Made by a program: the position numbers. From a virus, in the UHGV virus genome UHGV-0269425: a DNA stretch of 10,715 bases; one strand, given 5' to 3'. Positions 9,001 through 10,715 of this stretch are shown here, piece after piece. Every line of letters starts with the position of its first letter. The stretch's first letter is position 1.

Positions 9001-10715
9001 AACGACGCATGAGGGTAAACTCGGGGCGATCAGTAACCTCAATGATTTCGTTAATTTCTTTAATTTCGCGAGGAATATCCATGGGTTTAGTCTCCTTTGA
9101 TATCACATGCCCGCACTGTTTAAAAGAGCGAGCTGTTATTGAGGCATTTGCCGAAAAACAAATTGAAAAAACACCTTTTTTTAACGTCGCTTTTGTATGC
9201 AGAAGTTGTCATCGAGGAGGTGTTGCTATTGTTGAAATCCCATCAGACCACTATCACGGTCCCATGGCGGAAAGCCAGAAAAAAGACCTCGATATTCTGA
9301 TTTCAGGAAATAGCCAGTACCGTTTCCGCAAGATCTATCCTGTGGTCAAAAAAATTACCGCACCAGAATATACGCCCCCGGTTGCAGACCGTACTTTTGT
9401 TGAGGCAAAAGAGGATTTACAGAGGAGGCGGTACGACACAGTGGTTATTCTTTGTCGCAGAGTCCTCGATATCTCCACGAAAAAACTGCTCGGCGATGAA
9501 GCAGGAAAAGAATCGCTGTCGCAACGTATTCAGATGATTTACAAAAAAGGCCTGATCACTGAACAGATGAAGGAATGGGCTCATATTGTACGAATTGATG
9601 CCAATAAAGCAGTTCATACAGATGAAGTTTTCACACCAATTGAGGCAAGCCAGATCCTGAGTTTTACCGAAATGTTTTTAGTCTACGCCTTCACCCTGCC
9701 TGCAATGGTGGAAGCCAGACGTGAACAAAAAAGATCAGATTCAGCCTCTATATGAATCACTTTTCTGAACACGTAAGCCCCCGTCATTCACGACGGGGAG
9801 AACATCAATCCCTCTGCACTCCCTCGCCAGAATGCCAGCACACGCTGCATCGTTTCGCTGTTACGGCACTCGCGACAAATTGTGTTGTAGCGTCTGTCGT
9901 AGCGCCGTATTTCCCCATCTGGTAATGCCCGGATAAGGTCTGGATCAACGACAACCGGTTTCTTCGACTTTGCCCTTGAGAGTTTTTTGCGGGCATTTTG
10001 CCAGTCCTTACGAGCCTGTTCAGACGGGAATACTCCGTAACCGGAATTGTAAACATCACCACTGGCGGCCAGCTCCATGCATAAACGACCGACAGACGCA
10101 TGACTGACACCAATTTCATCCGATAACTGCCGAATCGTGCCTCGTCCGTTAAGGCGTACGAATTCCACGATCAGCCCCTTAATTTTTTCCCGCTCTTCTG
10201 GTGTAAATGCTCTTGTCATAAGCACCTCCGGAGATCACTTTGTTGTCGGTGAATGAACCGGAATATCAGCAATCGAACTGAAAATATCCCGGTGTTTATT
10301 CAGCTCCCGCAGCGCGGCGCAGACTCGCTCCCACTTCTGAACATCACTTTTCGCCCTGCGCAGCGCCAGGTTTGCCCTGCGCAGGGACGGAAAAATCAGC
10401 TCATCTGCTTGCGTTTCGGTAAACGATGGCAACGACTGCACAATGTCCGCCACAGTTTCTGTTTTAATTTCTTCCTGTGTTGCGGCTTCCCGGACTGGTA
10501 ACGCAGCACCTGCTGGCTGAGGAAAGGCCTTACCATCATTTTCCGTTACCGGCGCGGTTTTCGGATCTGCTGGTAAATTACCCCCCGGCATGCAGTAACG
10601 AAATTTACCGTTCTGATTAACGCGTGCCAGCCGCCCCGTTGCGGTTACCACCGCCAGCGTGGAAGCAACCTTGCGAGTGGTAACTCCGAACTTACCCGCT
10701 ATTTCTTCACAGGTT

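Follow-up and report, generated by a model that had tools for sequence, protein, structure and literature searches.

PD-T7-4 was found in an Escherichia coli functional selection (Vassallo et al. 2022, PMC9519451; source strain UMB1727) and has been renamed RAZR (ring-activated zinc-finger RNase; Zhang et al., Nature 2026, PMC13017515; PDB 9Y9C/9Y6U). It is a single-gene abortive-infection system whose trigger and structure have been solved (PMC9519451, PMC13017515), and it consists of one protein of 219 amino acids (aa) with an N-terminal Cys4 zinc finger and a C-terminal DUF4145/HEPN domain. The zinc finger binds ring-shaped phage proteins (the 24-mer Gp77 and 12-mer T7-like portals), 24 copies of RAZR assemble around the ring, and the activated protein cleaves single-stranded RNA (ssRNA) non-specifically, after which translation stops. 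Substitutions R146A and H154A abolish defence; linker 66–79 is required for function; residues D179, D180 and R184 make the inter-dimer salt bridges needed for higher-order oligomers and for defence; and the zinc-finger domain, the most variable part of RAZR, sets phage specificity (all PMC13017515). We examined a gene encoding a zinc-ribbon and DUF4145 protein at 9081–9755 (plus strand) of virus genome UHGV-0269425 (10,715 nucleotides (nt), the whole of which is called the window), and compared its product with RAZR. The product is almost certainly homologous to RAZR as a zinc ribbon–linker–HEPN protein, and sequence and profile comparison shows a true though distant relationship in which domain plan, linker and catalytic motif are shared.

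The HEPN clan (CL0291) includes DUF4145 (PMC3710099), whose fusions to zinc ribbons and occurrence in double-stranded DNA viruses and phages were listed in the 2013 survey of Anantharaman et al. (PMC3710099). As defined in Pfam (PF13643) it is a domain rather than a system; most members described so far sit as modules at the C-termini of restriction enzymes or helicases, or occur in fusions of other kinds. DS-38 (DefensePredictor), validated as anti-phage in E. coli, also joins a zinc finger to a HEPN domain in one protein, and its authors noted that the HEPN domain alone aligns with PD-T7-4. The Ishtar proteins, reported in a 2026 preprint to block RP4 conjugation, carry N-terminal DUF4145 or DUF3644 HEPN domains, and the BREX-associated protein BxaP has an N-terminal DUF4145; the domain is thus used against several kinds of invader. 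HepS (Gifsy-1; PDB 9OIK, described there as complexed with a structural protein of a phage, the lambda J tail tip) is another HEPN defence protein encoded by a prophage.

The window covers the early-right part of an E. coli prophage of the lambdoid, Stx-phage-like kind; over 2.3 kb it shares 99.7% identity with Escherichia phage PhiR5_2. In the open reading frame (ORF) list a plus-strand frame extends over 9009–9755; started at position 9081 (ATG), it encodes MGLVSFDITCPHC... (224 aa). This gene is real and complete: the identical 675-nt coding sequence is annotated in GenBank (PhiR5_2, whose protein is 100% identical) and in RefSeq (“DUF4145 domain-containing protein”), homologues begin at the same MG(L/I)(L/V)S, and a Shine-Dalgarno-like GAGGA at 9070–9074 (plus strand) stands 6 nt 5′ of the ATG. 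The protein matched PHROG 1305 (E 1e-63); no NCBIfam model was found for it, and a literature search on PhiR5_2 and on phage PhiR12_3 gave nothing relevant. The gene order in PhiR5_2 and in the RefSeq chromosome is cI/cro/cII/O/DnaC-like/DUF1627/DUF977/DUF4145 gene/81-aa ORF/toxin-antitoxin (TA) pair/ORF6N antirepressor/NinB/...RusA/NinH. The backbone genes of the window lie on its minus strand, including DUF977, DUF1627, the ORF6N antirepressor and NinB, which flank the accessory stretch; the DUF4145 gene and the TA pair lie on the plus strand.

For comparison with RAZR, its sequence was rebuilt from two database fragments, and its numbering agrees with the published V21, AGN68–70, R146, H154, D179, D180 and R184; a first search with a RAZR fragment had returned mostly N-terminally truncated gene calls. 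A phmmer search of the PDB with the window protein as a single sequence had no match at E≤10, and RAZR was reached by family profiles only. A profile of 36 close relatives ranked RAZR (9y9c_OA) second in the PDB (E 0.12), and the profile of a more distant set (93 relatives, 24–51% identical to the window protein) ranked the same chain first (E 2.2e-6), collinear over both domains. Profile-profile alignment with hhalign gave 81% probability for the close-relative profile against an alignment of 38 RAZR sequences, and 97.9% (E 3.7e-13) for the 93-sequence family against the RAZR family, pairing window residues 85–214 with RAZR 64–192. Among PADLOC models, PD-T7-4 was matched by more of the family than any other (50 of 93, best E 1.8e-11).

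The best defined part of the protein is the HEPN (DUF4145) domain, residues 100–214 (9378–9722, plus strand). The DUF4145 assignment, first made in a sequence-only reading of this stretch, was borne out when the Pfam check was run: PF13643 matched residues 118–197 at 36.9 bits (curated cut-off 23.1; E 3.9e-9), making the protein a bona fide member by its hidden Markov model score, and the domain was present in all 83 of the relatives listed (best E 1e-138). Within it the predicted catalytic motif R171-I-D-A-N175-K-A-V-H179 (RxxxNxxxH; 9591–9617, plus strand), which the same reading had likened to HEPN-type motifs, aligns exactly to RAZR RIVGNQAVH, so that R171/N175/H179 pair with R146/N150/H154. 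R171, D173, N175 and H179 are invariant in the alignment of 36 close relatives, and among the 93 diverse ones R171 is kept in 84 (with K in 6 others), N175 in 91 and H179 in 91. The triad is predicted to form a composite RNase site upon pairing of two HEPN domains. An AlphaFold2 model of the monomer, run with the family alignment (predicted local distance difference test score, pLDDT, 89.1), is laid out as four strands, a helix plus a strand (residues 53–86), a three-proline loop and a helical bundle; the C-terminal domain has the all-alpha HEPN fold. Its fold matches include the HEPN toxins 5YEP and 7AE2, together with Csm6, AbiA, LsoA and AbiV; a fold search of BFVD gave two viral matches without a name, neither of them informative.

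The zinc-finger domain has its core at residues 1–52 (9081–9236, plus strand), drawn from cysteine conservation, the AlphaFold2 model and weak profile matches to Rpb9/TFIIS zinc ribbons including 1QYP, the comparator also used for RAZR (PMC13017515). The two N-terminal CxxC pairs that had been read from the sequence are there as a Cys4 zinc ribbon on the plus strand (C10, 9108–9110; C13, 9117–9119; C40, 9198–9200; C43, 9207–9209); they are invariant in 36 of 36 close homologues and kept in at least 92 of the 93 distant ones, and in the model, where the N-terminal domain is beta-rich, four beta-strands surround both CxxC knuckles. The core is followed by a hypervariable insert, residues 53–84 (9237–9332, plus strand), modelled as one helix and one strand. 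Mean pairwise identity is 0.22 in the insert, 0.45 in the zinc-finger domain and 0.67 in the HEPN domain; the zinc-finger domain is thus the most variable region of the protein. The inter-domain linker, residues 85–99 (9333–9377, plus strand), is delimited by hhalign and by conservation, and its prolines are kept in most or all of the 93 relatives (P87 in 93, P95 in 87, P99 in 83); hhalign pairs them with the RAZR linker prolines P66, P74 and P79.

A search of 1.84 billion representative proteins returned a large and mostly full-length family: 3,329 clusters at 50% identity with E≤0.001, 1,412 at ≤1e-10 and 211 at ≤1e-30. Nine genomic contexts were read, in prophages or phages of Escherichia, Shigella, Atlantibacter, Pantoea, Enterobacter, Paraburkholderia and Burkholderia, and in each of the nine the gene stood alone and on the strand opposite to both neighbours, in agreement with the single-gene moron layout suggested beforehand. 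No neighbouring gene was common to the contexts read, that is, there is no conserved partner. The lambdoid replication/nin slot is occupied in the window and PhiR5_2, in the locus of a 71%-identical E. coli homologue, in PhiR12_3 and in P22-like prophages with an Atlantibacter-type homologue; the lysis/terminase slot is used in Pantoea and Enterobacter prophages; other contexts are a Paraburkholderia prophage and Burkholderia phage phi644-2. The homologue in phi644-2 (3501–4139 of the locus; tblastn match 3501–4118) is annotated as a 104-aa fragment, gp55 (3825–4139), probably from a mis-called start in the GenBank record. A 232-aa relative lies between cos and the portal gene of the P2-like Escherichia phage Cartapus (162–860 of its locus); it is 26% identical to the window protein (pairwise E 4e-18) and has K in place of R at the first motif position (VKDDGNDGAH). 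It adjoins the portal gene, as does the P2 defence hotspot described in PMC9519451, at a place where defence genes are carried by P2-like phages. The clade appears to live almost entirely on prophages.

Taken together, homology to RAZR, conservation of the motif, a zinc-finger domain that varies as a sensor might, and a moron/hotspot context lead us to favour, with some reserve, a reading by analogy in which the gene would provide an anti-phage RNase of the abortive-infection type, expressed from the prophage as a single protein built like RAZR. Both proteins are about 220 aa long, and in both a linker rich in prolines connects an N-terminal Cys4 zinc ribbon to the DUF4145/HEPN domain at the C-terminus; the RxxxNxxxH spacing is identical, the zinc-finger domain is the most variable part of each, and each is carried on mobile elements with no partner gene.

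A number of observations weigh against this reading. Pairwise identity to RAZR is 24% over 141 residues, in the linker and HEPN domain only, and the PADLOC model PD-T7-4 (PDLC04109) matched the window protein at 15.5 bits (E 0.0022) over residues 85–183, compared with 315–339 bits over the full length for true RAZRs. The zinc-finger domains align only through the CxxC knuckles, and convincingly only at the first of them (CPHC): hhalign of the zinc-finger domains alone gave 74.5%, driven by 10 columns around CPHC, and the window cysteines came weakly into register with RAZR C16/C19/C49/C52 under relaxed settings only, while global mode failed. The window zinc-finger domain contains the hypervariable insert of about 30 residues, whereas in RAZR the second CxxC is followed by the linker within about 14 residues, without an insert; the C-terminal tail is also about 20 residues shorter. 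V201, Y202 and L206 stand where RAZR has D179, D180 and R184, and Y202 is kept in 91 and L206 in 82 of the 93 relatives. The predicted catalytic loop 173–179 (9597–9617), carrying D173, N175 and H179, is the sole low-confidence segment of the AlphaFold2 model (pLDDT <50); this could fit an active site ordered only in an oligomer, or it could be a modelling artefact. No convincing sigma-70 site was recognised upstream of 9081 by strict and relaxed promoter scans, and the DefensePredictor supplement tables examined contain no sequence strings of the window protein. Finally, if the trigger logic of RAZR applied unchanged, a prophage would be in danger of activating the protein with the portal ring that it makes itself.

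Because of the 15.5-bit score, the insert, the weak zinc-finger alignment and the altered interface residues, the protein is not a member of the RAZR family in the strict sense; from its sequence we would place it in a sister clade of RAZR that probably works in a similar way. Replacement of D179/D180/R184 by V201/Y202/L206 means that ring-templated activation cannot be assumed, and higher-order oligomers, if they form, would use an interface other than that of RAZR, possibly a hydrophobic one. Location also differs: PD-T7-4 “often overlaps an integrase gene” (PMC9519451), whereas the window gene and its relatives lie within intact prophages, lambdoid and other.

The sequence of events that we suggest is as follows. 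Because it lies antisense to the early operon of the phage, the gene would be transcribed independently in the lysogen. Its product would stay inactive until the zinc-finger domain bound a protein assembly of a superinfecting phage, a sensing step taken over from RAZR, as are those that follow: binding would reposition the HEPN domains so that ssRNA is cut, and cleavage would stop translation, the infected cell then releasing no phage. Activation as in RAZR, by wrapping around ring-shaped phage assemblies, we consider a tentative suggestion and somewhat doubtful, and that such rings are the triggers is speculative. It may also be speculated that antisense early transcription during the prophage's own induction silences the gene; if true, such silencing by read-through early/late transcription would mean that the prophage's own portal or recombinase rings set off no suicide. 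A still less likely, broader proposal is of a large RAZR sister family specialised for temperate phages, with an expanded, hypervariable zinc-ribbon domain for another class of invader assemblies, a hydrophobic Y202/L206 surface in place of the salt-bridge interface, and silencing by antisense placement during induction.

The alternative that survives best, though we think it improbable, is an active HEPN nuclease directed at something other than a superinfecting phage, either conjugative plasmids and mobile elements or host takeover after induction. The block of RP4 conjugation by Ishtar and the BREX association of BxaP give it some footing; their architectures differ, however, with HEPN at the N-terminus and other domains C-terminal to it where the window HEPN is C-terminal, and the sole characterised zinc ribbon–linker–DUF4145 protein is anti-phage. 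Antisense placement speaks against expression in lytic growth.

Less probable again is a phage regulatory or DNA-binding protein serving the phage's own life cycle, whose zinc ribbon would bind nucleic acid and whose helical domain would be a non-catalytic scaffold. This is what the PHROG 1305 label (“DNA binding protein”) implies, and no evidence behind that label was found. A non-catalytic scaffold sits poorly with an R/N/H triad kept in 84–91 of 93 relatives and aligned to residues essential in RAZR, and the gene's placement, always antisense and in slots as varied as replication/nin, lysis/terminase and cos/portal, fits an accessory gene and not a core regulator.

We attach very little probability to the gene being the toxin of a two-gene TA or toxin-regulator pair with the divergent 81-aa ORF (8837–9082, minus strand; PHROG 8371) that separates the TA pair from the DUF4145 gene. 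The two start codons (that of the ORF at 9082–9080) overlap by 2 nt within the palindrome CCATGG at 9079–9084, and the same divergent overlap is annotated in RefSeq, beside the 71%-identical E. coli homologue and in the Paraburkholderia prophage; given the overlap, the promoter of each gene must lie inside the coding sequence of the other. Both genes fall in a 1-kb block (8785–9776) that is 96% identical to PhiR12_3, and HEPN toxins, among them the fold matches 5YEP and 7AE2, often have cognate antitoxins. Comparison of contexts nonetheless ruled out the ORF as a partner: phage phiSTEC1589 has it without the DUF4145 gene, an unrelated 166-aa gene occupying the slot, and it is absent beside five other homologues (Pantoea, Enterobacter, Atlantibacter, Paraburkholderia and Cartapus). 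Its direction is that of the early operon, as for a backbone gene, and it had no Pfam, PADLOC or NCBIfam match. The 1-kb block was also considered as a mobile two-gene module and rejected; PhiR12_3 keeps the order antirepressor-TA-81aa-DUF4145, so the block represents mosaic sharing of backbone and not transposition. No MNT-type antitoxin gene was found nearby, the neighbours being the 81-aa ORF, DUF977 and the Gp49/HTH pair, and the window protein differs from the HEPN-MNT toxins (type II/VII systems; 5YEP, 7AE2/7AE6) in its fused zinc-ribbon sensor and in its motif (Rx7H versus Rx4–6H). An equally improbable suggestion, a decaying or inactive remnant without present function, could draw on the lack of a recognised promoter and on the presence of the gene in just 37 of 5,426 complete E. 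coli genomes (≥95% DNA identity), and is countered by the intact frame with all motif residues, by 97–100% conservation of the protein across independent phages, and by the large family under constraint (the HEPN domain being so much better conserved than the insert).

The window protein was also compared with DS-38 and is not the same protein: DS-38 (WP_001313577.1) is encoded by 1101 nt and has about 366 aa, compared with 224 aa here. The likeness to HepS is carriage by a prophage. We found no report in the literature of this clade having been tested.

The TA cassette (8143–8782, plus strand), which had been proposed from sequence, was identified by Pfam as a Gp49/RelE-ParE-type toxin (8143 or 8155 to 8484; PF05973, E 5e-27) followed by an HTH_3 antitoxin (8474–8782; E 4e-11); a longer, GTG-started frame (8017–8484) overlaps the small RNA IsrK, and the actual toxin start is at 8143 or 8155. 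The idea of a counter-oriented island at 8.1–9.8 kb stood in part: both units are on the plus strand, but the minus-strand 81-aa ORF lies between them. Related phages have four unrelated cassettes in the TA slot, namely Gp49(PF05973)/HTH_3 in the window, HigB-like(PF05015)/HTH_3, RelE-like/HTH_3 and TumE/HVO_A0114 (the slot in three related loci is at L010 4126–4709, L002 4290–4973 and L015 2797–3445). Because the TA cassettes vary in this way and phiSTEC1589 has an unrelated gene in the DUF4145 slot, the region is a two-slot accessory hotspot, as the sequence-only reading had supposed of its layout. Between the convergent DUF4145 and DUF977 genes is a 7-bp GC-rich hairpin (CCCCGTC/GACGGGG, 9779–9798), which is a possible terminator; it is without a U-tract, and the terminator scan made no call there.

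Other elements of the window were noted apart from the DUF4145 gene. Tandem modules of C4 antisense RNA and IsrK small RNA are present in two copies (6298–6496 and 7889–8076, both minus strand; Rfam RF01695, 66–67 bits; RF01394, 69–75 bits; with RF03163 c4-a1b1 at 6444–6496), each a short way upstream of a different member of a pair of ORF6N antirepressor paralogues (5541–6245 and 7164–7835, both minus strand), and the duplication is visible as direct repeats D1–D4, about 1.6 kb apart and 81–91% identical. It looks like a duplicated antirepressor control unit of the P1/P7 immI-like or IsrK/AntQ-like kind, and with these duplicated units the minus-strand operon has internal regulatory units. 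A full-length match to the small RNA STnc100 (RF02076, 167.8 bits) was found at 2929–3135 (minus strand), in an ORF-poor stretch between a 177-aa ORF (3474–4007) and the esterase gene. A 636-aa ORF at 797–2707 (minus strand) overlaps, in a chromosomal locus that is nearly identical, a gene to which RefSeq gives the name SASA family carbohydrate esterase. No transfer RNA genes were found in the window.

Part of what is described here is already known: the gene carries the label DUF4145 in RefSeq, its architecture has been on record since 2013, and the mechanism of one protein built this way is solved. As RAZR is already solved as a single-gene system of this architecture, the novelty of the window protein is lower. 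The value of the gene is in its clade. RAZR is an immune RNase switched on by polymerising around a viral ring, and work to date has covered a single clade. The window protein belongs to another, very large one, which keeps the plan but differs in its sensor domain and in its putative oligomer interface. The current defence finder PADLOC v2 would miss the gene, so that lists of prophage defence genes for E. coli, Shigella and Stx phages are incomplete at this locus. The clade bears on whether ring-templated activation is general to zinc ribbon–DUF4145 proteins, on which other phage structures are sensed, and on how a prophage avoids triggering its own assembly sensor with its own virion proteins.

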